13,981 nt of DNA from a virus (lineage: Duplodnaviria; Heunggongvirae; Uroviricota; Caudoviricetes), in IMG/VR virus record IMGVR_UViG_2531839454_000017, positions 1 to 13,981 of that record; one strand, written 5' to 3'. The position numbers and the translations under genes are program-made. Under the pieces are notes generated by a model. The model made no database searches, was not told the origin of the DNA, and saw nothing but the letters and a program-made list of their open reading frames with translations. Shown here piece after piece: positions 1 to 13,981 of the stretch; within the stretch, counting starts at the first letter, position 1, and each line of letters begins with the position of its first letter.

Positions 1-212
<212 letters not shown>

Positions 213-372
213 CTCGGTGGCCAGTTTTTGTTGACCACTTCACTTCCTACCATCCAGCATTCTTTCCGGGCCCGGAGAATTGTGCCTGGTTTGAGCCCGG
301 TAATTGCGATAAGAACGCTTTCACAAACCCATTCATTGGGAGCCAGTTGAATCACATTGCCCATGCATTACC

Positions 373-519
373 TCACACAACACTCAGCCCACGGCAGTGG
401 CACCACACTTCAAACATTCGTTTCACAATTTCACGGCTGTAGAAACCGTCAACATCTCGCGTCAGGTCATAGCGATTGCCGTAACGCTGGCGTACCCATA
501 GCTCAAACGCTTTATTCAT
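373..519 (-). CDS. Hypothetical small protein, 48 aa (MNKAFELWVRQRYGNRYDLTRDVDGFYSREIVKRMFEVWCHCRGLSVV); below the ORF-track length cutoff
   Basis: Hand translation of the minus strand: ATG at 519-517 preceded by AAGGAA with 7-nt spacing, 3 nt after the stop of the upstream gene; stop TGA at 375-373. No family recognised. Confidence 0.3.
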   Translation of the reverse strand: MNKAFELWVRQRYGNRYDLTRDVDGFYSREIVKRMFEVWCHCRGLSVV

Positions 520-522
520 TCT

Positions 523-765
523 TTATTTCCTTTTCATGACCCGTAATTTTTTCAGATGAGTTTCCTGTTCTGTTTCTGCCAGAATTTGTCGGTATTCCTG
601 GTGATCGAGCCGTTCAAACAGTTCATTAAAATCGTTTATTTTTACCGACTGTGTTCGCCCATCCATTCTTCTGTACAACACAGTGTTATTTATGCAGCGA
701 ATAATTTTTACCGGGTAACCGGCACTGTCGGTATACAGTTGTCCCTGATTAATCAAAGCGAACAT
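523..765 (-). CDS. Hypothetical protein, 80 aa (start chosen inside ORF 523..888)
   Basis: Internal ATG at 765 is preceded by AGGAG with 5-nt spacing; the longer track ORF would overlap the upstream gene. Basic C-terminus (LKKLRVMKRK). No recognisable domain. Confidence 0.5.
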   Translation of the reverse strand: MFALINQGQLYTDSAGYPVKIIRCINNTVLYRRMDGRTQSVKINDFNELFERLDHQEYRQILAETEQETHLKKLRVMKRK

Positions 766-796
766 TTTTTCTCCTGCTCTCTGAATAGTGAGAACT

Positions 797-1168
797 TCAG
801 AGCCGTATGTTTGTAGCGGGTTCAATACTGATAATTTCTGCTGAGATAAGCATCCCGGCAAGCCAGAGTTCTCCGGACAGGTCTTCATCCTGACATATCA
901 GTTCGCCAATATTAATGGTGGCCATGATATCTGTTCCCCCTGTGCGCTCATCCTCGACTTCTTCATAAGGCAGTGTTGCGTACAGGCTTTCAATAGCGCA
1001 ACTGATAACATCCAGTCCGGTCAGATTGCCGCCGACAGTAACTTCGAATGTTTCGCGGTATTCCCATAACCCGAAAGTTAATCGAACGGTTTGTTTTGCC
1101 ATACGTCCGCATGACGTCAGATTCGGGTCATAGTTCATTATTTGCGGTTGGGCATTATGGGTGTTCAT
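797..1168 (-). CDS. Hypothetical acidic protein, 123 aa (start chosen inside ORF 797..1240)
   Basis: ATG at 1168 preceded by AAGGGA with 7-nt spacing; the track start at 1240 would overlap the SPFH gene end. C-terminal half is strongly acidic (about 13 D/E versus 2 basic residues in the last ~57 aa). Confidence 0.5.
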   Translation of the reverse strand: MNTHNAQPQIMNYDPNLTSCGRMAKQTVRLTFGLWEYRETFEVTVGGNLTGLDVISCAIESLYATLPYEEVEDERTGGTDIMATINIGELICQDEDLSGELWLAGMLISAEIISIEPATNIRL

Positions 1169-1208
1169 CTGCTTTTCCCTTAGCCCGGCGGTCTGCCGGG
1201 CGTATAAG

Positions 1209-2036
1209 TTATTTAACCTGGATAAATGGTGTACTGGCACCGCTGGTCATGTATTGCGGCAGTGTGCCGTTCCATTTATTAATGGCTTCCAGTTCCATAA
1301 CACCAGGGTTCTGGCGCAGAGCTTCACCGCGTAAACGAATAGCATCGGCTTCGGCCTGGGCTTTTGTGCGAATGGCGTCAGCCTGTCCGGCAGCTTCCGC
1401 GCGCAACATGTTGGCTTCCGCTTCGCGCTGTTTTACTTCCTGTTCGCGTTGCAGGGTCTTCTGGTTTGCCGTGACTTTGGCATTAATGCTGTCGATAACG
1501 GTTGGCGGGTACTCCGGCTTACCCACATATGAGAGACTCATTACCTGAATACCGATGGGCGTCATTTCTGCCTGAATGTCTTTAAGGGCTGCATCCAGCA
1601 GCTCAGACTTGCCGCCGTCGATAAATTTGTCAGTGGTCATTTTGCTGGCCAGTCGGTTGAGTGCGTCGGCGATCTTCTGGCGCAGGTCAGTGTCGGTAAT
1701 GTCATCCACGCCTTTGCGGTAGGTCTGAAACACCGTGGTAACTTTGGATGGATCAACTTTGTAGGCCACGCCAATGTGATAGCCGATGGTTGTACCGTCA
1801 CTCATCTGGAAACTGAACGGTTCATCGTAGGTCTTCATTTGCTTGAAGGTGGGGAAGATGTAAACTTCAGTATTCCAGCCAGTCCAGTAGCGACCAACAC
1901 CGACCACCTCACCGACGCCTTTGTCGTCGCCCAGTTTATTTACCTTGATGCCAACATTACCTGGTTCAACGCGATCGCAACCGACAAGGCCAATAGTCGG
2001 CAGAACAATGGCTAAAGCAAAAATAATTTTTTTCAT
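1209..2036 (-). CDS. SPFH/band-7 (prohibitin/HflC/flotillin-like) lipoprotein, 275 aa
   Basis: N-terminal signal peptide with lipobox LVGC (MKKIIFALAIVLPTIGLVGC), then a band-7-like core and a long Ala/Glu/Gln-rich coiled-coil-like tail (QREQEVKQREAEANMLRAEAAGQADAIRTKAQAEADAIRLRGEA). ATG at 2036 preceded by AAGGA; start overlaps the stop of the upstream small gene (ATGA at 2033-2036). Confidence 0.85.
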   Translation of the reverse strand: MKKIIFALAIVLPTIGLVGCDRVEPGNVGIKVNKLGDDKGVGEVVGVGRYWTGWNTEVYIFPTFKQMKTYDEPFSFQMSDGTTIGYHIGVAYKVDPSKVTTVFQTYRKGVDDITDTDLRQKIADALNRLASKMTTDKFIDGGKSELLDAALKDIQAEMTPIGIQVMSLSYVGKPEYPPTVIDSINAKVTANQKTLQREQEVKQREAEANMLRAEAAGQADAIRTKAQAEADAIRLRGEALRQNPGVMELEAINKWNGTLPQYMTSGASTPFIQVK

Positions 2037-2221
2037 CTTTTATCCTTAGTGAAAGAAAGACCCTTGTAAATGGCATAAATGCAGGGCGGGGTCAGAAACG
2101 CCAGTGCAAAGCCAGAAATAACTGCTATCGTATCCTTCATGGATATAAGGAACGGAACAAGTAATCCGTAAATACATGCGATAATTGCCAGTAAAATTAC
2201 TATTGTGAAATACAGTCTCAT
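2033..2221 (-). CDS. Small integral membrane protein, 62 aa, translationally coupled to the SPFH gene
   Basis: Two hydrophobic segments (LYFTIVILLAIIACIYGLLVPFLI and AVISGFALAFLTPPCIYAIY); stop overlaps the SPFH start codon (ATGA). A small membrane partner upstream of an SPFH protein recalls NfeD-SPFH pairs, although this protein is much shorter than typical NfeD. Confidence 0.6.
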   Translation of the reverse strand: MRLYFTIVILLAIIACIYGLLVPFLISMKDTIAVISGFALAFLTPPCIYAIYKGLSFTKDKR

Positions 2222-2244
2222 TGGTCTGTGGTATCCCGATATTT

Positions 2245-2352
2245 TTAACCGACTGACAGCACAATAAAGAGAATAATGATTTCAGTTAGTGTCAGTACTG
2301 TGGCAAGGATTAAAATCAGTTTTACTCTGTTTAATTCACGGTTGCTTTTCAT
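2245..2352 (-). CDS. Possible tiny membrane peptide, 35 aa (MKSNRELNRVKLILILATVLTLTEIIILFIVLSVG); not in ORF track
   Basis: Hand translation: charged N-terminus followed by one hydrophobic helix; lies 23 nt upstream of the 62-aa membrane gene on the same strand. No convincing Shine-Dalgarno, hence low confidence. Confidence 0.25.
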   Translation of the reverse strand: MKSNRELNRVKLILILATVLTLTEIIILFIVLSVG

Positions 2353-2364
2353 ACAAACGGTTAG

Positions 2365-2391
2365 TAAAAAACTGGAAGAATTATTTTCTTC
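2365..2391 (-). terminator. Weak intrinsic terminator-like hairpin after the 193-aa gene
   Basis: On the minus strand, GAAGAA/TTCTTC stem (AT-rich, 6 bp) followed by CAGTTTTTT; located just past the stop at 2399. Confidence 0.3.
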
Positions 2392-2398
2392 TTAATAT

Positions 2399-2980
2399 TT
2401 AATGTGTCACTGGCGCTTCTGGCATACCATGAGTATTCAGGTCGTTAATCATTTCATCCAGAAGGAGTTCAAGCCCTTCGCGCCCCATAGCAGAAACAAT
2501 GAAACCATTATCAGGATCTGCGATGAGCATATTTTGATAGAGAAACAGAACTCGCCCCATGCCTTCAGCTTCGCCATATTTTTCAATAAATCCCCATTCG
2601 ACATGGTTTTGCAGGGCAATGCGAAGTGGTCCTGGGTATATACTCATGCAACCATGCTTCCCCTTATAAATAACAGCGCGATCTGTAGTTCCGTTATCGT
2701 TAGGGATATCAATGGTGCCGTTCTTATACTCCTCTTCATTAATAAATACCGTTACATACAGCCAGCGCCACTGTGCAACCTTCATATCGATAGAACAGTT
2801 TTCTAAAATCCCGGACTCATCGGCTTCTGCCAGGCACTGGAGAATGCTTAAACCGCGTGAATTTGGATAATCGTATTCACCATCATTAAGCCGCTGTACG
2901 GCCTCAATATAATCAATGGTTGTATTACCAATTTTTATGCCATGTGGCGTTACTTCTGGTCGGAACTCTGAATGATTCAT
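2399..2980 (-). CDS. Hypothetical protein, 193 aa, no recognisable domain (start chosen inside ORF 2399..3055)
   Basis: ATG at 2980 preceded by AAGGAG with 8-nt spacing; this start overlaps the stop of the upstream 62-aa gene (ATGA at 2977-2980). No nucleotide-binding or catalytic motif recognised by eye. Confidence 0.7.
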   Translation of the reverse strand: MNHSEFRPEVTPHGIKIGNTTIDYIEAVQRLNDGEYDYPNSRGLSILQCLAEADESGILENCSIDMKVAQWRWLYVTVFINEEEYKNGTIDIPNDNGTTDRAVIYKGKHGCMSIYPGPLRIALQNHVEWGFIEKYGEAEGMGRVLFLYQNMLIADPDNGFIVSAMGREGLELLLDEMINDLNTHGMPEAPVTH

Positions 2981-3165
2981 AATGTTTGCTCCTTTGCTGG
3001 TGGAATAATCGTGTAGCCAGCTCTTTTTGCCATCCACAGAAATGTATCCATGCAACCAACGAATTCATTATCCAACAGATGTTTTGAGTAAATTACTTCA
3101 CCATTTTCAATGGTTAGCAACACTCTTACTTTTTTATGTGTTATGTTTTGGTGTTTTTCTTCCAT
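2977..3165 (-). CDS. Hypothetical small protein, 62 aa (MEEKHQNITHKKVRVLLTIENGEVIY...), translationally coupled to the 193-aa gene
   Basis: Preferred start ATG at 3165 is preceded by GGGAG with about 8-nt spacing; the ORF-track start at 3180 lacks a Shine-Dalgarno. Stop overlaps the downstream start. Confidence 0.55.
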   Translation of the reverse strand: MEEKHQNITHKKVRVLLTIENGEVIYSKHLLDNEFVGCMDTFLWMAKRAGYTIIPPAKEQTL

Positions 3166-3175
3166 TGATTTATCT

Positions 3176-3194
3176 CCCATATGCTTTGCGCAAA
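3176..3194. repeat. Copy 1 of a repeated 19-bp motif with palindromic core TTTGCGCAAA
   Basis: CCCATATGCTTTGCGCAAA; matches 13922-13940 at 18 of 19 positions; overlaps the start region of the 62-aa gene. Confidence 0.45.
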
Positions 3195-3361
3195 TACAGG
3201 CTGGCTATATGAAGATAAGAATCTCCATGTTGTGCAATGAGGCAGGCAGTTTTATACGATGCCTTATGTTTCAGGAAAGTCATAACATAATCTCCTGCGA
3301 ATAAAGGTTGCAACGATCCCCGGCGATAAAACCGTAATAAACATTCAGGGAATATTTATTG

Positions 3362-3727
3362 TTATTGCGCTAATTCTTTTTCGGCAGCAGATTTTGCATA
3401 TTCACATGCAAAATTCAGAATTTCGCTGCCAAGTGTTTTTGTTTCGTGATTACTGGACATATGTAATACCTGTGTTGCATGCAATAAATGATAAACATTT
3501 ACCGCAAATGAGTCCGGCTCCAGACAAATGCCTTCATAATCATCTTGTTGTGAGGTTGTTTCTGTCATTGCTCCTGAAGTGCATGCGAGCCTGTTTTTGA
3601 CAATTCTCTTTCCTCTAATCACTATATCGGCAACATCTATTGCCTTTACAACCTCCGGGAGAAGTTCCGGGTTTGTATAATCAAAGTCATCAACATGGAG
3701 AACAGTTATGTTTTCGAACTTTTTCAT
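3362..3727 (-). CDS. Hypothetical protein, 121 aa
   Basis: Intact ORF with GAGGAA upstream of the ATG at 3727; same orientation as the cargo block. No family recognised. Confidence 0.6.
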   Translation of the reverse strand: MKKFENITVLHVDDFDYTNPELLPEVVKAIDVADIVIRGKRIVKNRLACTSGAMTETTSQQDDYEGICLEPDSFAVNVYHLLHATQVLHMSSNHETKTLGSEILNFACEYAKSAAEKELAQ

Positions 3728-3855
3728 GGCTTCCTCAGCTGACTTATATGTTCTGCTATATAGCGAGTCTCAGAAGGGTTTTCATATTGAGACTGTTTCC
3801 GCAATGATTGATAAAAATGTTCGCATGTACCTTGAGGGGCGAAGCGGCGATTATG

Positions 3856-4404
3856 TCACCATTGGTATTGGTTCTTCCGTAGAAGAGCTTCGCGAGATAA
3901 GGAGCAAACTTGTTGAGATGCGTCATGGTGTTGCTGCTCCTCACTTTTTGGTTGCTCCGGAGGAGTAACCTCGCCAGTTAACAGCCACATCGGATCGCAG
4001 CCAAGAATATTTGCCAGTGGGATAAGCATACTGATGGTTGGTTCATACTCTCCGCTCTCCCACTGAATGATGATTTCTTCATCGAGATCGAGCAGCCTGG
4101 CGAGTTCGGCGGTTGTTAAGCCGCAGGCTTCGCGTTGGGGGCGAAGGTTAACCAGCCAGCTTTTAGGGAAGGATTGTTTTTGTTGTGCAGGAGAAGCCGC
4201 AGATAGAGCATATTCATGGATAAATTCCATTACCTCAATGCCCAGTTCCTTTGAGCGAGCACAATCCAGAAGATGGAATGTGCGTACAGCACTTAGCAAA
4301 TTTGCAATATTTAATGCAAAGGAATCAAGTTCTAAGCCTTCAAGCGTAACACAGCCGCAGTTGATAAAATTAGTTGTTTCTGGAGTTGCTTTTAGTGTCT
4401 TCAT
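3856..4404 (-). CDS. Atypical HTH (XRE/Cro-C1-type) protein, 182 aa: unknown ~90-aa N-terminal domain followed by the HTH
   Basis: Residues about 95-150 (GLTTAELARLLDLDEEIIIQWESGEYEPTISMLIPLANILGCDPMWLLTG) form a classic XRE helix-turn-helix; the N-terminal ~90 aa and the Gln/Glu-rich tail are unassigned. Own sigma70-like promoter upstream. Confidence 0.75.
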   Translation of the reverse strand: MKTLKATPETTNFINCGCVTLEGLELDSFALNIANLLSAVRTFHLLDCARSKELGIEVMEFIHEYALSAASPAQQKQSFPKSWLVNLRPQREACGLTTAELARLLDLDEEIIIQWESGEYEPTISMLIPLANILGCDPMWLLTGEVTPPEQPKSEEQQHHDASQQVCSLSREALLRKNQYQW

Positions 4405-4457
4405 ATACCCACCAACAATTTTAAATTGAATTTAATCAAGTTATAATTGATGTTGCG

Positions 4458-4486
4458 ATATTATGCTTTGAGAAATAGGCTGTCAA
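4458..4486 (-). promoter_or_regulatory. Sigma70-like promoter for the HTH gene (minus strand): -35 TTGACA, 17-bp spacer, -10 TAATAT
   Basis: Reverse complement of 4481-4486 is TTGACA and of 4458-4463 is TAATAT, with a 17-nt spacer; sits between the cI terminator and the start at 4404. Confidence 0.5.
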
Positions 4487-4512
4487 GAAAAAATTGATAT
4501 CGTGTGTTTTAG

Positions 4513-4537
4513 GCAGAAAAAAACGGGCAAAGCCCGT
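4513..4537 (-). terminator. Rho-independent terminator downstream of the cI-like gene
   Basis: Minus-strand sense reads ACGGGC-UUU-GCCCGU followed by UUUUUUU; begins 13 nt after the repressor stop codon. Confidence 0.7.
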
Positions 4538-4549
4538 TAAAATCAAAGA

Positions 4550-5239
4550 CTAACCAAATCTGTTTATATTGAATGGTACTGATGAGATCACTTTAGACTG
4601 GATATAAAGCAGAGCTAACCCCTCTTTTTCGATGCTCCATGGTTGATAATTGGGGTTATCAGATAACACCATGATTTTGCTTCCAATTTTTTGAAGTCTT
4701 TTCACGTAGCATTCTCCATCAAAACAAAATGCATAAATGCCATCGCCATCAAAATAAGTTACTGTCTTATCAAGAAAAAGAAGGTCGCCAGGTGAGATTG
4801 TGGGAGCCATACTGTCTCCTCTGGCGTTACCTATTTCTATATTTTTGAATGCCCGATTTCCAACAAGGCGTCGGGCATATTCAGGATCAAGTTCTATTGA
4901 GCGCACTACATCTATCAAGTCACCACGGACATGAGTTCCATCACCGCAACTAAACTCAACATCAAGGACATTAAACACGACGCTATCTGTTCTTGTCTGG
5001 TGTTTCTCTTGCGAGGAAAAGGTTGGTGAGGAGTCTTCACCTAAGAACCAGGATTGTGGATAACCGCTAATCTCGGATAAATGCGCGAGCTTATCACTCC
5101 GTGGAAATGTTTTTCCTGTTGTCCAGTACTGCACTGATTGCGCACTCACACCTAACTTGCGGGCCAGTTGAGCCTGAGTCCATCCTTTTGCTTTCAGCAT
5201 CGCGGCTATTCGATTTTCCGTGTTTTTGACGTTCTTCAT
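4550..5239 (-). CDS. Prophage CI-like repressor: N-terminal XRE HTH plus C-terminal S24 (LexA-like) autopeptidase, about 229 aa
   Basis: HTH (WTQAQLARKLGVSAQSVQYW) and S24 motifs (GDSMAPTISPGDLLFLD with the catalytic Ser; YVKRL with the Lys). The track start is TTG at 5245; the ATG at 5239 is preferred. Divergent from a Cro-like gene. Confidence 0.9.
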   Translation of the reverse strand: MKNVKNTENRIAAMLKAKGWTQAQLARKLGVSAQSVQYWTTGKTFPRSDKLAHLSEISGYPQSWFLGEDSSPTFSSQEKHQTRTDSVVFNVLDVEFSCGDGTHVRGDLIDVVRSIELDPEYARRLVGNRAFKNIEIGNARGDSMAPTISPGDLLFLDKTVTYFDGDGIYAFCFDGECYVKRLQKIGSKIMVLSDNPNYQPWSIEKEGLALLYIQSKVISSVPFNINRFG

Positions 5240-5372
5240 GACCAAATCCTGTGGGTTTCTTTACAAGGATAAATCTTTACTTGATTTTAGTGTATTCGAT
5301 CCTTTTGCAACTTGCATGTTAATTTAAACTTGATGTATTCTTGATTTATAAAGTTAATGTTGGTGCTTTGTT
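5240..5372. promoter_or_regulatory. Divergent cI/cro promoter-operator region
   Basis: AT-rich 133-bp spacer between divergent repressor genes; three direct copies of a CTTGAT(T/G)T motif (about 5280, 5329, 5341); palindrome TGCAAcTTGCA at 5306-5316; a possible rightward promoter (TTAAAC, 17 bp, TATAAA at 5324-5352). Confidence 0.55.
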
Positions 5373-5645
5373 ATGAAAGGAAATGATTACGACAAACTTC
5401 GTGCATTAATTGCGCAAAATGCCATAGCGCGAAATCTTGGTGTGACGCCGCAAGCGGTGAATCAGTGGTTTTCAAAAAACACAATTCCTGCTCGTTTCGT
5501 TTTACGCGTATGTGAAGTAGTTGCATGGAAGGTCACGCCACATGGCTTAAGGCCAGATCTTTATCCTCACCCTGAAGATGGAATTCCTGATTCGTTACGC
5601 AAAATTTCAAATCCAAGCTTAGCGCATACAGAGGACGAGAAGTGA
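5373..5645 (+). CDS. Cro-like HTH regulator (YdaS/DicC-like), 90 aa
   Basis: HTH signature IARNLGVTPQAVNQWFSKNTIP; divergent arrangement with the CI-like repressor, as in lambdoid immunity regions. Confidence 0.75.
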   Translation: MKGNDYDKLRALIAQNAIARNLGVTPQAVNQWFSKNTIPARFVLRVCEVVAWKVTPHGLRPDLYPHPEDGIPDSLRKISNPSLAHTEDEK

Positions 5646-5685
5646 TGGTGGTGATATGAGCGAAAAAATAACTATTAAATACGAT

Positions 5686-5708
5686 GGGGCAACCATTTCG
5701 ATTGCCCC
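5686..5708 (-). terminator. Terminator-like hairpin after the reverse-oriented moron
   Basis: GGGGCAA/TTGCCCC stem (7 bp, 9-nt loop) 8 nt downstream of the stop at 5716 on the minus strand, followed by a U-rich stretch. Confidence 0.35.
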
Positions 5709-5715
5709 AATCACA

Positions 5716-6009
5716 TTAGCGTTCGCTGAGAAGTTGTTGGTAAGCCTTAAAGGATGCGAACTGCATTCTACCTTCGGCATTGATTCCAATGCCTTCGCTT
5801 GTACACCAGGTGATGAACTCGGCTGTATCCGCTTCAACTTTAATAACTCGTTGCCCGCTTCTTTCGACACGCTTAATCAATTTTTCAGCGTCGTGTTTCC
5901 ACTCGGTGTAACTGTCGGAGAGCACATCAGCATCAGTAAAAATATTTTTGAGCTCATGATACTGAATCGCATCGCGAAACCAGAATAAACCAACGGCCTG
6001 AACTTTCAT
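5716..6009 (-). CDS. Hypothetical protein, 97 aa; reverse-oriented moron inside the rightward early operon
   Basis: ATG at 6009 preceded by AAGGAGG with 6-nt spacing; balanced protein-like composition. The overlapping plus-strand ORF 5656..5988 is judged spurious. Confidence 0.65.
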   Translation of the reverse strand: MKVQAVGLFWFRDAIQYHELKNIFTDADVLSDSYTEWKHDAEKLIKRVERSGQRVIKVEADTAEFITWCTSEGIGINAEGRMQFASFKAYQQLLSER

Positions 6010-6122
6010 GTCGAACCTCCTTTGGTTCTTTTGTTTATAGGGATCAAAAGGATAACTGAAGGAAGGTTCGGCACCAATAAGTACGAATGTGCGGAATCTT
6101 AAAAGAATTTATCCGTAAGGAG

Positions 6123-6836
6123 ATGGCAGTGAACACCGCAATTTTTAACGACAAAGCATCCATGACCAGCGTTGAGATCGCAGAGCTGGTGGGTAGTCAG
6201 CACTCAGATGTTAAACGTAGTATCGAACGCCTGGTTGCTAAAAACATCATCCGGAAACCGCCAATGGCTGTTTCCGAGAAAATCAATAACTTAGGTTTTA
6301 AAGTTCAATATGAGCATTACCTGTTTGAAGGAGAACAAGGTAAGCGCGACAGCATCATTGTCGTCGCACAGCTCTGCCCTGAATTCACTGCTCGCCTGGT
6401 AGATCGCTGGCGTGAACTGGAAGAACAGATCCGTAAGCCAATGAGCGAAATTGAAATGGTTGCTGCGATGGCTCTTGAAGCCGTTCGTCAGCAGAAACGG
6501 ATCACTCAGGTGGAAGAAAAAGTCAGCCATGTTGCCGAAACAGTTGAGCAAATCAAAAGGGGTACCATTCGTGAGGGCTATGCCGGATATCGCCAACTGA
6601 AAGCGAAAACCGGTTTGTCAGATGATAAATGCCGCAATCTGGTGAACGCCTATCAAATTCCTACAGATACCCACGAGTTTATGACGCCGGACGGATTGTT
6701 ATCACGTCGCGCAATTGTTGCTGTGGAACCGTTTATGGCCGCTTTTTATCAGGTTATGGAGGAAGCAGAACCGCGAGGGACTCGCTGGTATCACCCGAAA
6801 ATGGGGTTATTTCAGGTTATTGGTTGGCAGCGGTGA
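6123..6836 (+). CDS. Rha/antirepressor-like phage regulatory protein (N-terminal Rha-like motif plus unassigned C-terminal domain)
   Basis: Motif MTSVEIAELVGSQHSDVKRSIERL resembles the Rha N-terminal domain. Start is ambiguous: track ATG 6087 (no SD), ATG 6123, or GTG 6129 (AAGGAG at 6117-6122, best spacing). Stop TGA at 6834-6836. Confidence 0.6.
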   Translation: MAVNTAIFNDKASMTSVEIAELVGSQHSDVKRSIERLVAKNIIRKPPMAVSEKINNLGFKVQYEHYLFEGEQGKRDSIIVVAQLCPEFTARLVDRWRELEEQIRKPMSEIEMVAAMALEAVRQQKRITQVEEKVSHVAETVEQIKRGTIREGYAGYRQLKAKTGLSDDKCRNLVNAYQIPTDTHEFMTPDGLLSRRAIVAVEPFMAAFYQVMEEAEPRGTRWYHPKMGLFQVIGWQR

Positions 6837-6860
6837 AAAAAAGCCGGGTAGTGACCCGGC
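6836..6860 (-). terminator. Orphan minus-strand intrinsic terminator
   Basis: GCCGGGT-AGTG-ACCCGGC hairpin (6843-6860) followed, in minus sense, by seven U (plus-strand A-run 6836-6842); no U-tract on the plus side. Confidence 0.5.
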
Positions 6861-7062
6861 TCGCTCAACGTTAGTAAAGGCAACCTCACAAAGAAGTAAG
6901 CCAGTAACATCCAAGAACATTTGCGTTAGTAAAAATACCAGTAAGCATATGAATGTTTCAAGCCTAAATATTGATTCTGCAATTTCGGGACGTTACACTG
7001 TCTCCGCACCTTATAAAGCGGGTGCCGGGATTGGAACCCCGGAATTGCTCGAGGCGATATAC

Positions 7063-7082
7063 GACGCGCTAGCGTCTTTTTT
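7063..7082 (+). terminator. Plus-strand terminator-like hairpin between the two Rha genes (tR-like)
   Basis: GACGC-GCTA-GCGTC stem-loop followed by TTTTTT (7077-7082). Confidence 0.4.
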
Positions 7083-7248
7083 ATCGTCCATGCTCGCGCA
7101 CGCCAGAATTATGGTGGGCTGGGCAGGGGAGCCGAAAGGCTCGCCGGTTTCCTTGAGCGCCGGTAGTTCCAACCCTGTTCAGTCCGCCACCAGCGAGCTT
7201 GGAACCTCCGGTGGTGGAAGTTTTTCACTGCTCAAGGAGGCTGCCATC

Positions 7249-7611
7249 ATGGCTACAGTCCCAACTTCCCCATACCTGAAAATCGAAGTCGTCAACGGCA
7301 AGGCCGTTATTTTCTCCCTGCATGTTGCCTGCCACTTTAAGCGCATGCACCAGAACATCGTCGACAAAATCGAGTATCTGAACTGCTCACGCGAGTTTTT
7401 TACCCGCAATTTCATACCGGGTACTTATCACATCTATGGTGACTCCCTGCGTGGTTATTACATCACCCTTGATGGCCTGATGATGCTTCAGCTTGGGTTA
7501 AGTCTGCGCACAATGCGGTACTACGAGAGCTGTATTGAAGCATTCCATGAGGCAGAAACTAACCTGAATCACACCGCTTTCCGCCGTAATCAATGGGAGG
7601 TGCGTCCATGA
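7249..7611 (+). CDS. Rha-family phage regulatory protein, 120 aa
   Basis: HFKRMHQNIVDKIEYL ... NFIPGTY ... YYITLDGLMMLQLG ... CIEAFHEAE matches the Rha N-terminal domain pattern. ATG at 7249 preceded by AAGGAGG with 8-nt spacing. The same frame stays open upstream to 6715 but without a credible start. Confidence 0.7.
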   Translation: MATVPTSPYLKIEVVNGKAVIFSLHVACHFKRMHQNIVDKIEYLNCSREFFTRNFIPGTYHIYGDSLRGYYITLDGLMMLQLGLSLRTMRYYESCIEAFHEAETNLNHTAFRRNQWEVRP

Positions 7612-7802
7612 TTAGTTACGAAATTATTATTTCCACAACTGAATACAGAAACGATGTATCAGTTCGCACGGATACGTCTGTCTGGCACCGCCGCTATAAA
7701 TCTAGGAAAACAGCGGAACGTAAAGCAGCGGAGATGTGTGAAACCATCGCAATGAAAGGCAGTCCGGTTAAATACATCACTACGGCGGAGGGGCGCCCAT
7801 GA
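7608..7802 (+). CDS. Hypothetical small phage protein, 64 aa
   Basis: ATG at 7608 overlaps the Rha stop (ATGA); GGGAGG lies 7 nt upstream. Confidence 0.6.
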   Translation: MISYEIIISTTEYRNDVSVRTDTSVWHRRYKSRKTAERKAAEMCETIAMKGSPVKYITTAEGRP

Positions 7803-8023
7803 TTCGTCGCGTTGTGAATTCTCTGTATCACCGATACAACCGTTGCCCCCGTGTGGGGCAGTGGTTTGCCACCAGCAACGGTCACGTTCTGCGGGTTTGC
7901 CTGGTCAGTACCGAAAGCCAGAAAGTTGTGTGTGAATTACTGGGGCGTAACTACACCATTAGCTATCCGTTGATGGCGTTTCAGTCCGGAAAAATGTTTA
8001 AACGCCTGGGAGGTGCCGTGTGA
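7799..8023 (+). CDS. Hypothetical small phage protein, 74 aa (Cys-containing)
   Basis: ATGA overlap with the upstream stop; GGAGGGG Shine-Dalgarno; stop overlaps the GTG start of the next gene. Confidence 0.6.
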   Translation: MIRRVVNSLYHRYNRCPRVGQWFATSNGHVLRVCLVSTESQKVVCELLGRNYTISYPLMAFQSGKMFKRLGGAV

Positions 8024-8976
8024 GTAGCAAAATTCTCGGTAACGTCTGGGATGCATGTGCCGCGTATGGAGTCAAAGGTGCAAAGCTGATGATCATGGCG
8101 CGTCTGGCTGATTATTCGAATGATGACGGGGTGTGTTATCCCGGTGTTGAAACAATATGCCGACAGCTTGGGTTGGGAGAAAGCACAGTAAGAACAGCAA
8201 TTTCAGAGCTGGAGGCTGATGGCTGGCTGACGCGTCAGTCACGCCGCAAAGGTAATCGTAATACGTCCAATCTTTATCATCTGAATGCTGATCGGCTTGA
8301 ACAGCTTGCCAGAACGGAGCGGGATAAGGTCGCAGAACTAAAACAGCAGCGCAGACTTTCAGTACTACGTGACCCGTCAAAATCTGAACCTTCAAAATCT
8401 GAACCTTCAAAATCTGAACCTTCAAAATCTGAACCGTCAGAATCTGAATGTTCAGGTGTGTTTGACCCTTCAGATTCTGGCAAAAAAACGGTTTTGACCC
8501 TTCAGAATCTGGCCCCAGATCCACAAGGTTTAAAACATGATCCGCAAGTAAATTCAAAACATGATCCGCAAGATATTGGCGCATCCGCTGACGCGTCTGC
8601 ACCAGCGCGCTCTGCCCGACAGGAATATTCACCGGAATTTGAACAGGCCTGGCAGGAATATCCCAAACGTGCTGGTGGTAATTCCAAGTCGGCAGCCTTC
8701 AAAGCCTGGAAAGCCCGTCTCAGGGAGGGAATAAAACCGGAGACCATGCTTGATGGTGTGAGACGTTATGCCGCTTGGGTACGTGCTACAGGAAATACCG
8801 GCACACAGTTCGTGAAGCAGGCTGCGACGTTCTTTGGACCCGATCGTCACTTCGAAGACTTCTGGCAACAGCCAGCCGCTCCCGGAGGGGGGCGACAGCG
8901 ACAGGTCGATGTCCTGGCTGGCCTGGGAGCCATGTCTGACAAATTCGGTAAATCCAGTGACAAATTGACATTCTGA
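8020..8976 (+). CDS. Phage replication initiator (lambda O-like replisome organiser): N-terminal winged-helix region, central repeats, C-terminal domain
   Basis: GTG start with GGGAGG 6 nt upstream, coupled to the preceding gene; PSKSE repeated four times plus further repeats in the middle; position immediately upstream of the DnaC- and DnaB-like genes. Confidence 0.75.
   Translation: MSSKILGNVWDACAAYGVKGAKLMIMARLADYSNDDGVCYPGVETICRQLGLGESTVRTAISELEADGWLTRQSRRKGNRNTSNLYHLNADRLEQLARTERDKVAELKQQRRLSVLRDPSKSEPSKSEPSKSEPSKSEPSESECSGVFDPSDSGKKTVLTLQNLAPDPQGLKHDPQVNSKHDPQDIGASADASAPARSARQEYSPEFEQAWQEYPKRAGGNSKSAAFKAWKARLREGIKPETMLDGVRRYAAWVRATGNTGTQFVKQAATFFGPDRHFEDFWQQPAAPGGGRQRQVDVLAGLGAMSDKFGKSSDKLTF
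8374..8512. repeat. Iteron-like array inside the O-like gene; candidate phage replication origin
   Basis: Five tandem 15-bp units (TCAAAATCTGAACCT and variants) at 8377-8451, then two copies of TTTGACCCTTCAGA(T/A)TCTGG flanking an A-run (8461-8512), and a further 17-bp direct repeat (AAAACATGATCCGCAAG, twice) near 8531-8580. Confidence 0.55.
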
Positions 8977-8986
8977 GGGGACAGCG

Positions 8987-9865
8987 ATGATGACGTTTAA
9001 CCTGCGTGAACAACAAAAAAGACTACAGGCGCGAATGGATGAGTTACGGGCAGAGATTGCATTTGCTCAGAAGGGCGAAAAGCCATGGCCTTATCGTTCC
9101 TGCCTGATGCGTGAAGGTCGCGGATATTGCGAAAAACACGGTAAATACCATACGCATATACTGGTGTGGAGCGATCGTAATGGCGAGGACAGAGAAAAAA
9201 TTTCATGCTGCCCTGACTGCTTGATCGCTGAGGCCAACGATTTGACCATGGAATTGTCGTCCATCAAGGCGGAAGAGCTGACTGATAACGCCGGAATTGC
9301 CCTGCGTTTTCGGGACTGCGAGTTTGATAATTATCTGGAGGTTAATCCTGACGCAGCCAGAAATCTTGCAGCCTGTCGCCGCTATGCGGAGAACTGGCCA
9401 GATATGCTGGAGAACGGCACCAGTCTTGTTATGACTGGCAGTTGCGGTACCGGGAAAAATCATCTGGCGGTATCAATGGCAAAACACATCATCCGTAACT
9501 ATCTGGCCAGTGTGGAGATCACCGACGTGATGCGTCTTACCCGTGCTGTGAAAAACTGCTGGCGGAATGACAGCGAAAAAACAGCGGATGAAGTTATTGA
9601 GCATTATGCGTCAATGGATTTGCTGATCATCGACGAAGTTGGTGTTCAGTTTGGCAGCGCGGCTGAAATGGCTATTTTGCAGGAAATTATCAATGCCCGG
9701 TACGAAAGTATTCTGCCCACCATCCTGATTAGCAACCTTTCACCGGATGAGTTGTGGGCGTTCATCAGCCCCCGCATTGCCGACAGGATCACAGACGGGG
9801 GGCGCAACTGGTTGTCGTTCAACTGGCCCAGCTATCGTTCTCGTATCAGAGGTGTGGCTGCATGA
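8987..9865 (+). CDS. DnaC-like helicase loader (AAA+ ATPase, IstB/DnaC family)
   Basis: Walker A GSCGTGKNHLA (compare E. coli DnaC GKPGTGKNHLA) and Walker B DLLIIDEVG; Cys/His-rich N-terminus; GAGGGG Shine-Dalgarno 6 nt upstream. Confidence 0.85.
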   Translation: MMTFNLREQQKRLQARMDELRAEIAFAQKGEKPWPYRSCLMREGRGYCEKHGKYHTHILVWSDRNGEDREKISCCPDCLIAEANDLTMELSSIKAEELTDNAGIALRFRDCEFDNYLEVNPDAARNLAACRRYAENWPDMLENGTSLVMTGSCGTGKNHLAVSMAKHIIRNYLASVEITDVMRLTRAVKNCWRNDSEKTADEVIEHYASMDLLIIDEVGVQFGSAAEMAILQEIINARYESILPTILISNLSPDELWAFISPRIADRITDGGRNWLSFNWPSYRSRIRGVAA

Positions 9866-11253
9866 CAATACCAGTCTGGCGTAACGATGACCTGGAAGGC
9901 GCTGTTATTGGCGCGTTCTTTCTGCGTGGGGCAGATCCTGAAGTGATGGATATTCTGGCCACATTGCCGGCGGACGTTTTTTCTGTACGAGCGTATCGGG
10001 ATATCTACACAGGTATCTGCAGACAGGCCCGTGTTTCAGGTGTGATTGACCCTGTGCTGCTGTGTAATGAGATGCCGGAACTTGCCCCGGTGATTACTGA
10101 TACCGGGCGCAAAACCTGGGTGAAGTCGTCACTGGAGCACTATGTTGCAGCGTTGCGGCGCAATGCCGCATTGCGCGATGCAGAAAAAACACTGAATGAG
10201 GCGTTACAGAAATTACGTGATGCGCATACCTGTGAAGCAGCTGAAGATGCTCTGAAGGATGCGCAGAACATGATGGCCTCATTGTCGACGGGGAAGGGTA
10301 TTATTCAGCCGGTACATATTGATGATGTGCTTCCGGAAGTGGTTGAACGTGTTGAATGCCGGAATCAGGGGCTGGAGAAATCCAGGACGCTGATGACCGG
10401 TATTGATGAACTGGACGCAAAAACAGGCGGTATGGAACCCGGCGACCTGGTATTTATTGCGGCTCGTCCTTCGATGGGTAAAACCGAACTGGCGCTGGAT
10501 ATCATCGACAAGGTGACTGAGCAGGGGCATGGTGTTCTTCTGTTCACAATGGAAATGGCGAACATCCAGATTGGTGAGCGCATGGTATCTGCGGCTGGAG
10601 GAATGCCGGTATCACGCCTGAAATCTGTCACTCACTTTGAAGACGAAGACTGGGCACGTTTCTCACAAGGAGTGGGGCGGATGACCGGGCGCAATATCTG
10701 GATGGTGGACCAGGCGAACCTGACCATTGACGAGATATACGCAACAACGAAACACCACCTGATTAAACATCCGGAAACGGCGCTGGTGGTGGTTGATTAT
10801 CTCGGGCTGATAAAAACCCGGAGCACGGGGCGTCATGACCTTGCCGTGGGTGAAATCTCAAAGGGGCTTAAAGGCCTGGCAAAATCCGGCGGATTACCGG
10901 TGGTTGCGTTGAGTCAGCTCTCCCGCGGTGTGGAGTCCAGGCCCAATAAACGCCCCATGAACTCAGACCTGAAAAATTCCGGAGAAATAGAGGCGGATGC
11001 AGACATCATTCTGATGCTTTACAGGGATGAAGTGTACAACCCGGATACGCAGGCCAGGGGCATCGCAGAAATCAATATCACGAAACAACGTAACGGTTCT
11101 CTGGGAACGATTTACCGGCGTTTTTATAACGGACATTTTCTGCCTGTGGATCAGGAAAGCGCACAGATTCTTTCTACCCCAATGCAGCAGCCCCAGCCGC
11201 GCAGATACAGCAACAAACGAACTGACAGCAGTAAGATGGAGCGTTTCTTTTGA
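9862..11253 (+). CDS. DnaB-family replicative helicase, about 463 aa
   Basis: ATG at 9862 overlaps the DnaC-like stop (ATGA). Motifs ARPSMGKTELALDI (Walker A), LVVVDYLGL, VVALSQLSR and KQRNGSLGT align with E. coli DnaB; the track ORF starts further upstream inside the preceding gene. Confidence 0.9.
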   Translation: MTIPVWRNDDLEGAVIGAFFLRGADPEVMDILATLPADVFSVRAYRDIYTGICRQARVSGVIDPVLLCNEMPELAPVITDTGRKTWVKSSLEHYVAALRRNAALRDAEKTLNEALQKLRDAHTCEAAEDALKDAQNMMASLSTGKGIIQPVHIDDVLPEVVERVECRNQGLEKSRTLMTGIDELDAKTGGMEPGDLVFIAARPSMGKTELALDIIDKVTEQGHGVLLFTMEMANIQIGERMVSAAGGMPVSRLKSVTHFEDEDWARFSQGVGRMTGRNIWMVDQANLTIDEIYATTKHHLIKHPETALVVVDYLGLIKTRSTGRHDLAVGEISKGLKGLAKSGGLPVVALSQLSRGVESRPNKRPMNSDLKNSGEIEADADIILMLYRDEVYNPDTQARGIAEINITKQRNGSLGTIYRRFYNGHFLPVDQESAQILSTPMQQPQPRRYSNKRTDSSKMERFF

Positions 11254-11507
11254 ACAACCAGACAACACCTTTTACCCCTGAACAATTACGTAAACAGGCA
11301 CAGGAAATGTTGCGACAGGCGGAACAACTGGAAAAAACAGGTGTAACAAAAGATGCCATTCGTCGGGATATGGTGCCAGCGCTCAGGGAACTGATGCAGG
11401 CGAAACACCGCGCACAAAAAGCGGTGGATGAGCTGGTGGATTGTGTGGCAGAGCTGGAAACCAGAGTTGGAAAGTTTGAAAAACTGGTGCAGGAGGTGCT
11501 GCGCTGA
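11250..11507 (+). CDS. Hypothetical small protein, 85 aa, probably coiled-coil
   Basis: TTG start at 11250 overlapping the helicase stop, with GGAG about 8 nt upstream; an internal ATG at 11307 is an alternative start. Stop overlaps the Q start. Confidence 0.5.
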
Positions 11508-11890
11508 TGCGTGATATTCAGATGGTTCTTGAGCGTTGGGGGGCATGGGTGGCAAATAATCATGAGGATGTCACCTGGTCATCGATTGCAGCCGGATTCA
11601 AGGGACTTATTCCTTCAAAGGTTAAATCGCGACCGCAATGTAGTGATGATGACGCAATGGTTATTTGTGGGTGTATGGCTCGTTTGAAAAAGAACAACAG
11701 TGATTTGCATGATTTGCTGGTAGATTATTATGTGGCTGGTATGACGTTTATGGCACTGGCCCGTAAGCATCATTGTTCTGATGGATATATAGGAAAAAAA
11801 CTTCAGAAGGCTGAAGGAATAGTCGACGGAATGTTGATGGCACTGGATGTTCGTCTCGAGATGGATCTTGAAGTTGTTAGATGTTATTGA
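11507..11890 (+). CDS. Late-gene antiterminator Q, 127 aa (phage 21/QuuD-like type)
   Basis: Length, sequence ([24 protein letters not shown] ... [23 protein letters not shown]) and position before the late-region porin match the short Q family of DLP12/phage-21-type lambdoids; AGGAGG upstream. Confidence 0.8.
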
Positions 11891-11901
11891 TTAACGTTTG
11901 C

Positions 11902-11910
11902 TGGTAAAAT
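11902..11910 (+). promoter_or_regulatory. Candidate late promoter (pR'-like) extended -10 element: TGgTAAAAT
   Basis: TG at 11902-11903 and TAAAAT at 11905-11910, immediately downstream of Q and resembling the lambda pR' -10 region; no good -35. Confidence 0.3.
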
Positions 11911-11914
11911 TGAA

Positions 11915-11941
11915 TAAAAAAGGGGACGCAAAAACGCCCCC
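11915..11941 (-). terminator. Minus-strand intrinsic terminator, likely for the porin transcript
   Basis: Minus sense reads GGGGGCG-UUUUUG-CGUCCCC followed by UUUUUUAUU. Confidence 0.55.
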
Positions 11942-12027
11942 AAGAGTTTAGAGTAATAAATAACAGAAGGTTAAAAAGAAAAGACAAAATGTCTTTCTTA
12001 ATGCAGTGACGTGAGGGCGTCACCCAC

Positions 12028-12068
12028 ATGTTGTGGGAGATAAATATCTCCCACAACATATCTTTTTT
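12028..12068 (+). terminator. Plus-strand intrinsic terminator (candidate tR')
   Basis: Perfect 15-bp inverted repeat ATGTTGTGGGAGATA/TATCTCCCACAACAT (12028-12059) followed by TTTTTT (12063-12068). Confidence 0.6.
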
Positions 12069-12079
12069 AATAAAAAGAT

Positions 12080-13177
12080 TTAGAACTGGTAAACCATACC
12101 GACAGCAACAATATCGTCGGTGTTTATACCAAGACCTCTGGTGAAATCATTTTTGTCAAGCAGGTTGATTTTGTAATCAACGAAAGTAGACATATTTTTG
12201 TTGAAGTAATAGGTTGCGCCTACATCAACATATTTAACTAAGTCTTGATCGCCCCATACTCCGAGATCTTTACCTTTAGATTGCAGGTAAGCCACGGACG
12301 GACGCAGCCCAAAATCGAACTGATATTGTGCAACAGCCTCAACGTTCTGAGCTTTATTAGCGACGAAGCGATCAGCAAATACCGTCATATTCTGGGTTTC
12401 AGAATAGGTAGTGGCCAAGTAAATGTTGTTAGCGTCATATTTCAGACCAGCGGCCCAAACTTCTGCATTTTTACCGGAAGCAAATACTCCAGGAAGAACT
12501 TTCCCTAGATTAACTTGAGTGTCGGTACGGTCAGATTTCGCATAAGTTGCACCAATACCGAATCCTTCGTATTCATAGGTAGCAGAGAAACCGAAGCCAT
12601 CACCGTTACCTTCGGTATAGTTATCGAGATTGCTACGATCGTTTTTGCCTTGGTACTGAGCAGCAAAGTTCAGACCATCAACCAGACCGAAGAAGTCGTT
12701 ATTACGGTAAGTTGCAACACCAGTTGCACGCTGAGTCATGAATACGTCGGTTTGAGTCCAGGTATCCCCACCGAATTCTGGCAAAACGTCAGTCCACGCA
12801 CCGATGTCGTATGCTACACCGTAGTTACGGCCATAATCGATGGAGCCGTAGTCACCGAATTTCAGGCCAGCGAATGCAAGGCGAGTTTTATCCCCGGAAG
12901 AACCTTGAGATTCAGCACGGTTGCCTTTGAATTCATATTCCCACTGACCGAAACCAGTCAGTTGATCATTGATTTGGGTTTCGCCTTTGAAGCCCAGACG
13001 AGCATAAGTTTTGTCACCATCGTGTTTATCGTTAGAGGAGAAGTAGTGCTCGGCATTAACTTTTCCGTACAGATCCAGTTTGTTGCTGTCTTTGTTATAA
13101 ATCTCTGCTGCTTGAGCAGACATCGCCATTAATACTGACGCAGCTACAGCAGAGATTGCCACTGTTAATTTTTTCAT
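12080..13177 (-). CDS. nmpC: Prophage-encoded outer-membrane porin (OmpC/OmpF superfamily, NmpC/Lc type), 365 aa
   Basis: Signal peptide [23 protein letters not shown] followed by AEIYNKD; general-porin beta-barrel sequence ending in the C-terminal VYQF; minus-strand gene placed just after Q, as nmpC in DLP12 and lc in PA-2; AAGGA Shine-Dalgarno. Confidence 0.93.
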
Positions 13178-13629
13178 CGTGAATCCTTAGTCCTTTTCGG
13201 AACTATTATTAAAAAATATTGTCACTGCGGCCTAAATATACATCTAATCGGTATGGCTATTTCAAGATATGGAGTTTATTTAATGGTTCAAAGTGTGATC
13301 AAGATCTCGTTTATGCGTACTGGTAATTATTGACGATGTTTTTGTAATGAGAGATGCGTTTCTGAAATGCAATGAAAAGTTATTGTTTTTGTATTTTATA
13401 ATGTAAATTTTTTGCGTGCTGGTTTACGTACGTAAAAATTTAAATATGATGTTAAGAGTAGTCACTTTGCCACACAGCTTAAACCAGCCGCCAAACGGGG
13501 TTTTTTATGCCCGAAAAGCGGCGCAGTACGTTAAACGCGCTGGTGGTTGCGAATACGGGTCTTTCAGCTTGCTGGCTTTTCCGACAAGAGTTATTGGTAT
13601 GTCACGTTAACCAGAAAAGGGAAAAAGAC

Positions 13630-13827
13630 ATGCTAAAACAGCAGGATATGACCGAAACTGCCAGAGTGGTGTTTAATGAATTAAGCGTCACCGAACCGGC
13701 GACCGTCGGGGAAATTGCGCAGAATACTTACCTTTCACGCGAACGTTGCCAGTTAATACTGACCCAGCTTGTTATGGCGGGTCTGGCAGATTATCAGTTC
13801 GGTTGTTACAGACGCCTTCCGCAGTGA
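13630..13827 (+). CDS. Hypothetical small protein, 65 aa (start chosen inside ORF 13507..13827)
   Basis: ATG at 13630 preceded by AAGGGA with 7-nt spacing; soluble, not holin-like. The alternative start at 13507 follows GGGG plus a T-run. Confidence 0.45.
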   Translation: MLKQQDMTETARVVFNELSVTEPATVGEIAQNTYLSRERCQLILTQLVMAGLADYQFGCYRRLPQ

Positions 13828-13921
13828 AGGCTTTTTAATTTGTGGTAATGGGCGGCTGGTGGGTGTTAGCGGCACCTGCCAGCCATCTGCTCATGCGTTG
13901 GGGTCACAAGCAAACCTCAGG

Positions 13922-13940
13922 CCCATCTGCTTTGCGCAAA
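13922..13940. repeat. Copy 2 of the repeated motif, with a partial third copy at 13883-13897
   Basis: CCCATCTGCTTTGCGCAAA; partial copy CCATCTGCTcaTGCG about 40 bp upstream; lies just before an ATG at 13947 that runs off the window. Confidence 0.45.
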
Positions 13941-13981
13941 AGCGGTATGAGCCTATCAGAGAAGTGCTTATTGATCTATGA

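Follow-up and report, generated by a model that had tools for sequence, protein, structure and literature searches.

Why does a short gene lie back to front inside the rightward early operon of a lambdoid prophage, between cro and the rha genes? The question is raised by a stretch of tailed-phage DNA (Caudoviricetes; IMG/VR record IMGVR_UViG_2531839454_000017, positions 1 to 13,981, one strand), which is 13,981 nucleotides (nt) long and is referred to here as the window. In it, an open reading frame (ORF) of 97 amino acids (aa), named ORF97, occupies positions 5716-6009 on the minus strand. An earlier reading of the letters alone, called here the sequence-only reading, had interpreted the locus as a reverse-oriented moron, expressed from the repressed prophage. 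The analysis presented here arrives at a related answer, to which a probability of about 60% is given: the gene is optional cargo, carried by a moron (a self-contained expression unit that faces backward) in a fixed slot of lambdoid Enterobacterales prophages. This slot lies directly downstream of cro, on the cI strand and antisense to the rightward early operon. The unit consists of a leader, a coding sequence and a hairpin, and in other genomes the slot is either empty or occupied by unrelated genes that stand behind the same leader.

ORF97 is a gene of the minus strand

ORF97 begins with an ATG at 6009-6007 and ends with a stop codon at 5718-5716. A Shine-Dalgarno sequence, AAGGAGG, can be read at 6016..6022 on the minus strand, 6 nt before the start codon, so that both the 97-aa gene and its ribosome-binding site are present as the sequence-only reading had described them. 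The same coding sequence is called by the NCBI Prokaryotic Genome Annotation Pipeline (PGAP) in identical Escherichia coli chromosomes (WP_000867914.1, hypothetical protein), and its product matches phrog_4753, a phage family of unknown function, from end to end (residues 1-97 against profile positions 1-97, E = 1.8e-49). A profile search of 1.84 billion representatives assigned 1,118 representative clusters to the ORF97 family at E <= 1e-3, and 88 of the 5,426 complete E. coli genomes carry the gene, which is full length in 75.

On the opposite strand, a frame of 110 aa (5656..5988, plus) covers much of the same DNA, and the earlier reading had left room for this frame being the conserved one. 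If so, it would be a real gene translationally coupled to cro, and ORF97 would be its shadow. The frame begins 11 nt beyond the cro stop codon, every homologue examined keeps it open, and the corresponding strand, which is that of cro, is the one annotated in GenBank for Elizabethkingia phage EKP1 (L005, OM284015; 5001-5396; 'hypothetical protein 21'). Selection nevertheless speaks for the minus strand. Among 39 homologous loci, which reduce to 16 distinct DNA sequences, third positions of ORF97 codons hold most of the variable sites (30/13/75 at positions 1/2/3), and the ratio of nonsynonymous to synonymous polymorphism (pN/pS) is 0.17 in the ORF97 frame versus 1.0 in the opposed plus-strand frame. 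The codon register of the plus-strand ORF is exactly opposed to that of ORF97, and stops in it require TTA, CTA or TCA codons in ORF97. Enterobacterial homologues contain 4-7 leucines and 2-6 serines, distant ones up to 10 serines, and the plus-strand frame stays open because ORF97 has few leucine and serine codons of these types. The length of the shadow ORF does not exceed chance, whether judged from amino-acid composition (P ~0.2) or by resampling codons from phage codon usage, and the ORF has no family or profile match. The Shine-Dalgarno sequence, the large family and the confident fold all belong to ORF97. With its pN/pS of 1.0, its chance-level length and the few stop codons expected in it, the plus-strand ORF is therefore rejected as a true or second gene with near certainty. 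The minus strand is the coding strand of the locus, and ORF97 is a real gene under purifying selection.

In EKP1, the shadow strand had been called as a gene in place of the ORF97 homologue; this is probably a mis-annotation, and it is corrected here. Judged by gene content, EKP1 and 'Actinobacillus' phage pPE4 (DUF4222, ydaT and the same leader) look like enterobacterial phages, and it may be worth checking the hosts stated for them. A further proposal, that antisense ORFs are kept open to shield the transcript of the rightward early promoter, PR, from Rho polarity, found no support: on codon resampling, the antisense ORFs opposite ORF97 and opposite every other cargo family are not longer than expected (P = 0.15-0.9).

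An optional unit in a fixed slot

Phage PhiR49_2 shares the cI and cro of the window at 95% identity up to ~5617, and its cro overlaps roi/rha directly, with nothing between them. Because these near-identical genes have nothing between them and roi/rha in a related phage, sequence comparison identifies the ORF97 unit as an insertion. In E. coli cq9 and other strains, the same slot holds a reversed 83-aa gene of the BssS family (PF13991) that has its own canonical terminator. In phiP27, it holds an unrelated reversed gene of 223 aa (L13; L044 1755-2426), whose upstream region differs from the leader described below and beyond which similarity to the window restarts at 6103; the 223-aa protein has no Pfam, PHROG or PADLOC match. 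The empty slot, these two replacements and the minus coding strand bear out the earlier claim that a reverse unit has been inserted between cro and rha.

The left joint of the slot is the 3' tail of cro, which encodes NPSLAHTEDEK and a stop (5610..5645, +). A tail of the form (H/N)PSLAHT(E/G)(D/E)EK is common to at least three otherwise different cro genes that precede ORF97 cargo, occurs also before BssS-family cargo, and looks like a conserved mosaic joint for the exchange of modules. ORF97 itself, at 77-100% identity, is found alongside five or more cI types and seven or more cro types, and its upstream neighbour may be Rha, a CII-like protein (phrog_101) or the 87-aa phrog_4439. A partnership of ORF97 with one Cro family was considered and is ruled out by its occurrence with at least three unrelated Cro families.

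In relatives having a cII-like gene, the unit lies between cro and cII. The lambda equivalent of the slot, previously given as the place of cII and the oop RNA, is for this reason corrected to the nutR/tR1 interval, where the PRE transcript passes. Homologues of 28-34% identity likewise stand antisense in the interval from cro to a cII-like gene. Distant ORF97 homologues of high-GC phages lack the leader and yet keep this antisense place, flanked by a cII-like gene and by cro or a candidate cro-like gene; in Klebsiella phage Kp4865-4, the homologue is situated on the other side of cI. In two of the high-GC phages (L045 3766-3999 and L011 4692-4931), a co-oriented gene encoding an alanine- and leucine-rich protein of 77-79 aa precedes the ORF97 homologue. 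This protein, for which neither PHROG nor PADLOC gave a match, could be a partner protein. Signs of the unit's dispensability come from nonsense alleles in 2 of the 39 loci (W37* and E36*, in the IMG/VR prophage contigs L031 and L038) and from an insertion sequence element between ORF97 and cro in a third locus (L022).

A portable leader before unrelated cargos

The non-coding block upstream of ORF97 is more conserved than the coding sequence, and it is kept where the identity of ORF97 falls to 77% and even to 34%. It forms a 70-nt cassette (6007..6077, minus) composed of arm A (TTGGTGCCGAACCTTCC, 6077-6061, minus), a variable middle and arm C (GGAGGTTCGACATG, 6020-6007, minus), and on the cargo strand its elements follow in the order TTGGTG, 17 nt, TATCCT, AAGGAGG and ATG. 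Within 28 unique leaders, GGAGG-TTCGAC-ATG is near-invariant irrespective of the cargo, and in E. coli the 74 nt through the ATG of the BssS-family cargo are 98.6% identical to window positions 6007-6080.

An exact-pattern scan of IMG/VR with TTGGTGCCGAACCTNCC returned 77 hits, of which the 49 that carry GGAGGTTCG(A/G)CATG at a constant distance were counted as leader loci. Behind the leader at these loci stand at least six unrelated cargo families: the ORF97 family (25 loci), a 151-155-aa family (10 loci), a 145-157-aa family corresponding to phrog_5286 (6 loci), the BssS family (4 loci and a frameshifted one), a 68-70-aa family (2 loci) and an 88-aa protein (1 locus). A gapped-pattern scan detected the leader in five GTDB species-representative genomes, all of them Enterobacterales (Izhakiella, Salmonella, Candidatus Symbiopectobacterium, Klebsiella and Hafnia). 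Further cargos were found in Salmonella and Hafnia, and the Hafnia protein has a hydrophobic N-terminal segment that probably spans the membrane. At 10 of 11 inspected IMG/VR leader loci (the context of L087 being ambiguous), the unit is oriented head-on to a cro-like gene and back to back with the early gene that follows, which encodes a CII-like protein (phrog_101), phrog_4439 or Rha. Phage pPE4 has the unit after ydaT and before the replication genes. Where the slot is empty, as in PhiR49_2, the leader is missing. These comparisons show the leader of Enterobacterales prophages to be portable at the sequence level, the same sequence preceding swappable, unrelated cargos. Limited literature searches, among them searches by accession and PHROG number, found no description of the slot or of the shared leader.

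Candidate promoter and RNA structures

The leader is a candidate for holding a modest sigma-70 promoter. Its candidate -35 element, TTGGTG (6072..6077, minus), occurs in nearly all leaders, partly by design of the search, and the candidate -10 element, TATCCT (6049..6054, minus), would place the start of transcription at ~6042-6045. The main argument is the conserved geometry of the -10-like hexamer, which in all 28 unique leaders follows TTGGTG at a distance of 16-18 nt (TATCCT, TATTCT, GATATT and, once, a perfect TATAAT) and ends 36-40 nt before the ATG, at a constant place within the variable middle. Position 2 of the hexamer is A in 27 of these leaders, and position 6 is T in 25.

At the other end of the unit, a stem-loop (5678..5717, minus) with the core GGGGCAATC-GAAAT-GGTTGCCCC at 5709-5685 starts 6 nt after the ORF97 stop. 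Its predicted stability is -19.9 kcal/mol (z = -4.2), which none of 200 shuffled sequences reached, and a terminator scan of the region reported 3 sites against 1.2 expected. Enterobacterial homologues likewise have a hairpin behind the stop, that of the EKP1-type unit differing in sequence; the distant homologues L003, L011 and L004 have none. Thus the terminator-like hairpin of the sequence-only reading stands as a stable structure, while termination at it is plausible, given an imperfect U-tract, and the element is best called a putative terminator or 3' stabiliser.

The whole leader is moreover an imperfect palindrome. On the PR-sense strand it is predicted to fold into one long imperfect hairpin (6009..6074, plus), just upstream of the rha ribosome-binding site, with -29.3 kcal/mol and z = -4.7 in the window. 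One long hairpin is predicted in every leader type, and the PR-sense folds range from -27 to -37 kcal/mol (z ~-5, compared with z ~-3 in the cargo sense), the PR-sense strand being the more stable in 23 of 25 unique leaders. From one leader type to another, pairs of the inner stem show covariation; one such pair, for example, occurs as UA 11 times, as GC 7 times and as AU twice, and is never broken. The outer arms hardly vary, and the few variants seen in them are uncompensated (arm C variants in L039, L042, L064 and L085). In this leader type only, a small terminator-like hairpin, GAACC-TCCTTT-GGTTC followed by TTTTGTTTAT (6013..6028, plus), could form as an alternative to the long one. Rfam covariance models run over window positions 5200-6400 gave only chance-level matches (E >= 0.59).

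Since arm A lies in the predicted promoter spacer, it would be untranscribed on the cargo strand; a transcript from the predicted promoter would contain the 3' arm only, and the long hairpin should therefore form only in the PR transcript. There, it may act in processing, in pausing or in stabilising the downstream mRNA, all of which are possibilities. A role of arm A as an anti-Shine-Dalgarno element in the cargo mRNA was also considered and is unsupported, given that arm C variants are uncompensated and that arm A falls in the predicted spacer.

The ORF97 protein

The sequence-only reading had proposed homology and structure searches, and these led to the function-unknown family phrog_4753 and to a partial match with a single solved protein. 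ORF97 encodes a soluble protein of 11.3 kDa (pI 5.65), acidic to neutral and without a transmembrane segment. Conserved positions of the family are W10, D26, W37, G52, W68, C69 and R81, and nearly all relatives are single-domain proteins of ~100 aa, with a few tandem repeats among them. No significant match was obtained in Pfam or NCBIfam, nor any to a helix-turn-helix (HTH) family.

The AlphaFold2 model is confident (predicted local distance difference test score, pLDDT, 87) and has the topology beta-alpha-alpha-beta-alpha-alpha. Its sole structural relative is SO3848 (PDB 2OX6), of which 84 of 162 residues were matched, and a fold search of BFVD returned only two uncharacterised phage proteins. 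When a profile of 104 family members was run against the whole set of PDB sequences, 2OX6, 1S4K and Aca2 were missing from the matches at E <= 10, and no link to a solved structure emerged. Structural homologues of SO3848 include Aca2, an anti-CRISPR-associated repressor, and YdiL. SO3848 is an Aca2-like regulator with an N-terminal HTH domain, a long helix and a C-terminal region that contains a two-stranded parallel sheet and extra helices (PMC8434428), and in other studies only 55-59 of its residues were aligned to HTH proteins (PMC9638941, PMC9410881). On account of this architecture and these short HTH alignments, the part of SO3848 that the ORF97 model resembles is probably the non-HTH, C-terminal one. 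Unlike SO3848, ORF97 has no HTH domain, and the two have no detectable sequence similarity. ORF97 is not a member of the Aca2/YdiL/SO3848 HTH regulators and cannot be a DNA-binding repressor of that family.

Proposed working of the unit

Structurally, the assignment as a moron is well supported: the unit fits the definition because it adds a gene between genes that are adjacent in PhiR49_2. Its working can be pictured as follows. In a lysogen, cI would silence PR, and the modest leader promoter (TTGGTG, 17 nt, TATCCT) would fire unopposed, yielding a short mRNA with a 5' untranslated region of ~35 nt and an exposed, strong Shine-Dalgarno sequence; the post-stop hairpin would end or stabilise this mRNA. 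If transcription did read through, the RNA would be antisense with respect to cro and sense with respect to cI, and lysogeny would not be harmed. Upon induction, PR transcription would run head-on through the unit, occluding its promoter and producing RNA antisense to the cargo mRNA, while the PR RNA, containing both leader arms, would form the 70-nt hairpin immediately ahead of the early gene that follows. The cargo would then be off during lytic growth. ORF97, a small soluble alpha/beta module, would most likely act through binding of a protein or small ligand that many hosts share, not of the repressor of one phage, and its benefit would go to the lysogen, through exclusion or defence or through modulation of host physiology, not to the core switch.

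A more far-reaching version, put forward tentatively, regards the leader as a dedicated platform for cargo expression. One strand would provide any inserted accessory gene with its promoter and ribosome-binding site, while structured RNA from the other strand, within the PR transcript, would tie cargo shut-off, as well as the expression of the early gene that follows, to the choice between lysis and lysogeny. The invariant leader arms and the conserved cro tail may in addition serve as homology anchors for the exchange of cargos.

Several observations weigh against the moron interpretation. The candidate promoter is weak by consensus (3/6 and 4/6) and falls below the threshold of a generic promoter scan, and the post-stop hairpin is followed by a U-tract (AUCGUAUUUAAUAGUUAUUUUUU) that departs from the ideal. 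Base composition is the same in the unit as in its flanks, with no sign of foreign origin. The position between cro and cII is conserved even at ~30% identity, which could mean a role in lysis-lysogeny. ORF97 and six homologues had no match in PADLOC-DB 2.0, hence no known defence family, and the wider family has no fusion to a known domain, no informative neighbours and, among its distant members, no Pfam matches. Because some family members are chromosomal and stand in non-phage contexts, the biochemical activity of the family is not inherently phage-related. The resemblance to the C-terminal part of SO3848, for its part, was derived from topology, the aligned range being unreported.

Alternative explanations

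The conservation of position at ~30% identity makes one competitor the most serious: ORF97 may be a component of the lysis-lysogeny decision, the first gene of a leftward, PRE-like transcript that runs through cro into cI. Its product would then help to establish or stabilise lysogeny, for instance by way of a host protease or RecA, as lambda CIII does for CII. The gene does lie on the cI strand, where the lambda PRE transcript passes, and, in phages that infect different hosts, its homologues of 28-34% identity have cro on one side and a cII-like activator gene on the other; without a clean U-tract, read-through into antisense cro and cI is conceivable, and the weak -35 element resembles those of activator-dependent promoters. 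However, the slot is empty in a close relative that has the same cI and cro, and elsewhere unrelated genes stand behind the same leader, so nothing in the slot can be essential to the switch. The leader is also conserved whether the neighbour is Rha, CII-like or phrog_4439, so that it has no phage-encoded activator in common, and no sign of a CII-type activator site common to the leaders was seen. With the nonsense alleles of ORF97 and the Kp4865-4 homologue on the other side of cI also speaking against it, this explanation is considered unlikely. The unit could alternatively matter mainly as RNA or DNA, its palindromic leader and convergent transcription regulating early rightward expression through processing, pausing or insulation before rha/cII, with the cargo ORFs as passengers. 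Both leader arms are indeed more conserved than any cargo, the PR-sense strand folds better (z ~-5) in 23 of 25 leaders, and the inner pairs co-vary; yet ORF97 is under clear purifying selection, the natural variants of arm C are uncompensated in arm A, no Rfam family was matched, and the early operon evidently does not need the leader, which is missing from the empty slot. This explanation is regarded as improbable.

A further proposal, judged very improbable, follows the logic of Qtip and smORF72, in which a small ORF paired with a transcription-factor gene (TF-smORF) encodes an antirepressor. ORF97 would be activated by the divergent Rha or CII-like regulator and would inactivate cI without proteolysis. 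The geometry fits this logic, with a small counter-oriented ORF beside a transcription-factor gene in the immunity region (PMC10432266), and the adjoining Rha and Ash proteins belong to families annotated as antirepressors or regulators. Described smORF antirepressors, however, are specific to their own cI and have no homologues (PMC10432266), whereas ORF97 occurs at 77-100% identity with at least five different cI/cro pairs, its family comprises more than 1,100 clusters and extends outside phages, and the adjacent gene is sometimes the 87-aa phrog_4439, not always a transcription factor. Because ORF97 is found with at least seven cro types, it is, on these comparisons, probably not a repressor-specific antirepressor. 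The moron interpretation keeps its place as the favoured reading.

Comparison with known systems and significance

Morons of lambdoid phages, in the sense of Juhala and Hendrix, include lom, bor, HK97 gp15 and similar genes. Like them, the ORF97 unit is an extra gene between genes adjacent in a relative and carries promoter-like and terminator-like signals, and its orientation would permit expression while the flanking lytic genes are repressed. Unlike them, it lies inside the immunity and early region, antisense to PR, its composition is not atypical, and its conserved palindromic leader of 70 nt is one that at least six unrelated cargos have in common. To our knowledge, and within a limited search of the literature, no shared palindromic leader of this kind has been described for classical morons.

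Temperate phages and satellites also possess accessory-gene hotspots, such as the defence hotspots of P2 and P4 and the rexAB/sieB-type genes next to cI, and genes expressed from prophage immunity regions have repeatedly been found to serve exclusion or defence. By analogy, the ORF97 slot resembles such hotspots in being fixed, with conserved flanks, and in housing one or another of several unrelated small genes, whose expression from the prophage is probable. It differs in that its conserved element is a non-coding leader, not the flanking core genes, and in that, unlike at defence hotspots, the cargos scanned (ORF97 and the BssS-family and phiP27 223-aa proteins, the only slot cargos covered) have no PADLOC match. 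The BssS family is linked to host physiology.

With the lambda PRE/oop region, the unit has in common a candidate leftward promoter that is placed within the rightward early operon, faces PR and uses the cI strand; it differs in encoding a conserved protein and in being dispensable, as the slot can be empty. As in TF-smORF and Qtip modules, ORF97 is small, counter-oriented to a neighbouring regulator gene and located in the lysis-lysogeny region, but those modules are orphan and specific to their own repressor (PMC10432266), whereas ORF97 is conserved across repressor types and belongs to a large family.

The novelty here, beyond the moron itself, lies in the palindromic leader that different cargos share and in the range of these cargos. 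If the favoured reading is true, TTGGTGCCGAACCTTCC, ~45 nt and GGAGGTTCGACATG together make a sequence handle for uncharacterised, probably prophage-expressed accessory genes of Enterobacterales, and the leader provides a defined, conserved promoter that is directly testable under convergent PR transcription. If the tentative platform version also holds, ORF97, the 151-155-aa, phrog_5286, 68-80-aa and 88-aa cargos and the Hafnia membrane cargo would constitute a pool of uncharacterised proteins that benefit the lysogen or act against phages. ORF97 in any case represents a large family (>1,100 clusters) that has no Pfam model.

Setting in the prophage

The window contains the integrase-to-Q portion of a phiP27-like lambdoid E. 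coli prophage, and its positions 5300-6200 are 100% identical to the chromosomes of E. coli strain 504838 and others. To the left of the unit lie cI, encoding a LexA-like S24 repressor (4550-5245, minus), and cro, of the YdaS/Cro type (5373-5645, plus). To the right, a Rha-family gene starts with GTG at 6129 according to PGAP and is followed by an Ash/Rha gene, the replication genes and Q. One of the replication genes, encoding a DnaC-like ATP-binding protein (window ~8957-9834; L001 10658-11535), is marked as frameshifted by PGAP in an identical chromosome, and the prophage may for that reason be replication-defective. In the leftward early region, a gene for an SPFH/Band-7 domain protein was observed (1209-2036, minus). 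Just downstream of the Q antiterminator, a complete, reversed gene for an OmpC-type porin (12080-13177, minus; Pfam Porin_1, E = 3e-155) is present, a prophage-borne porin gene of the known lc/nmpC kind.

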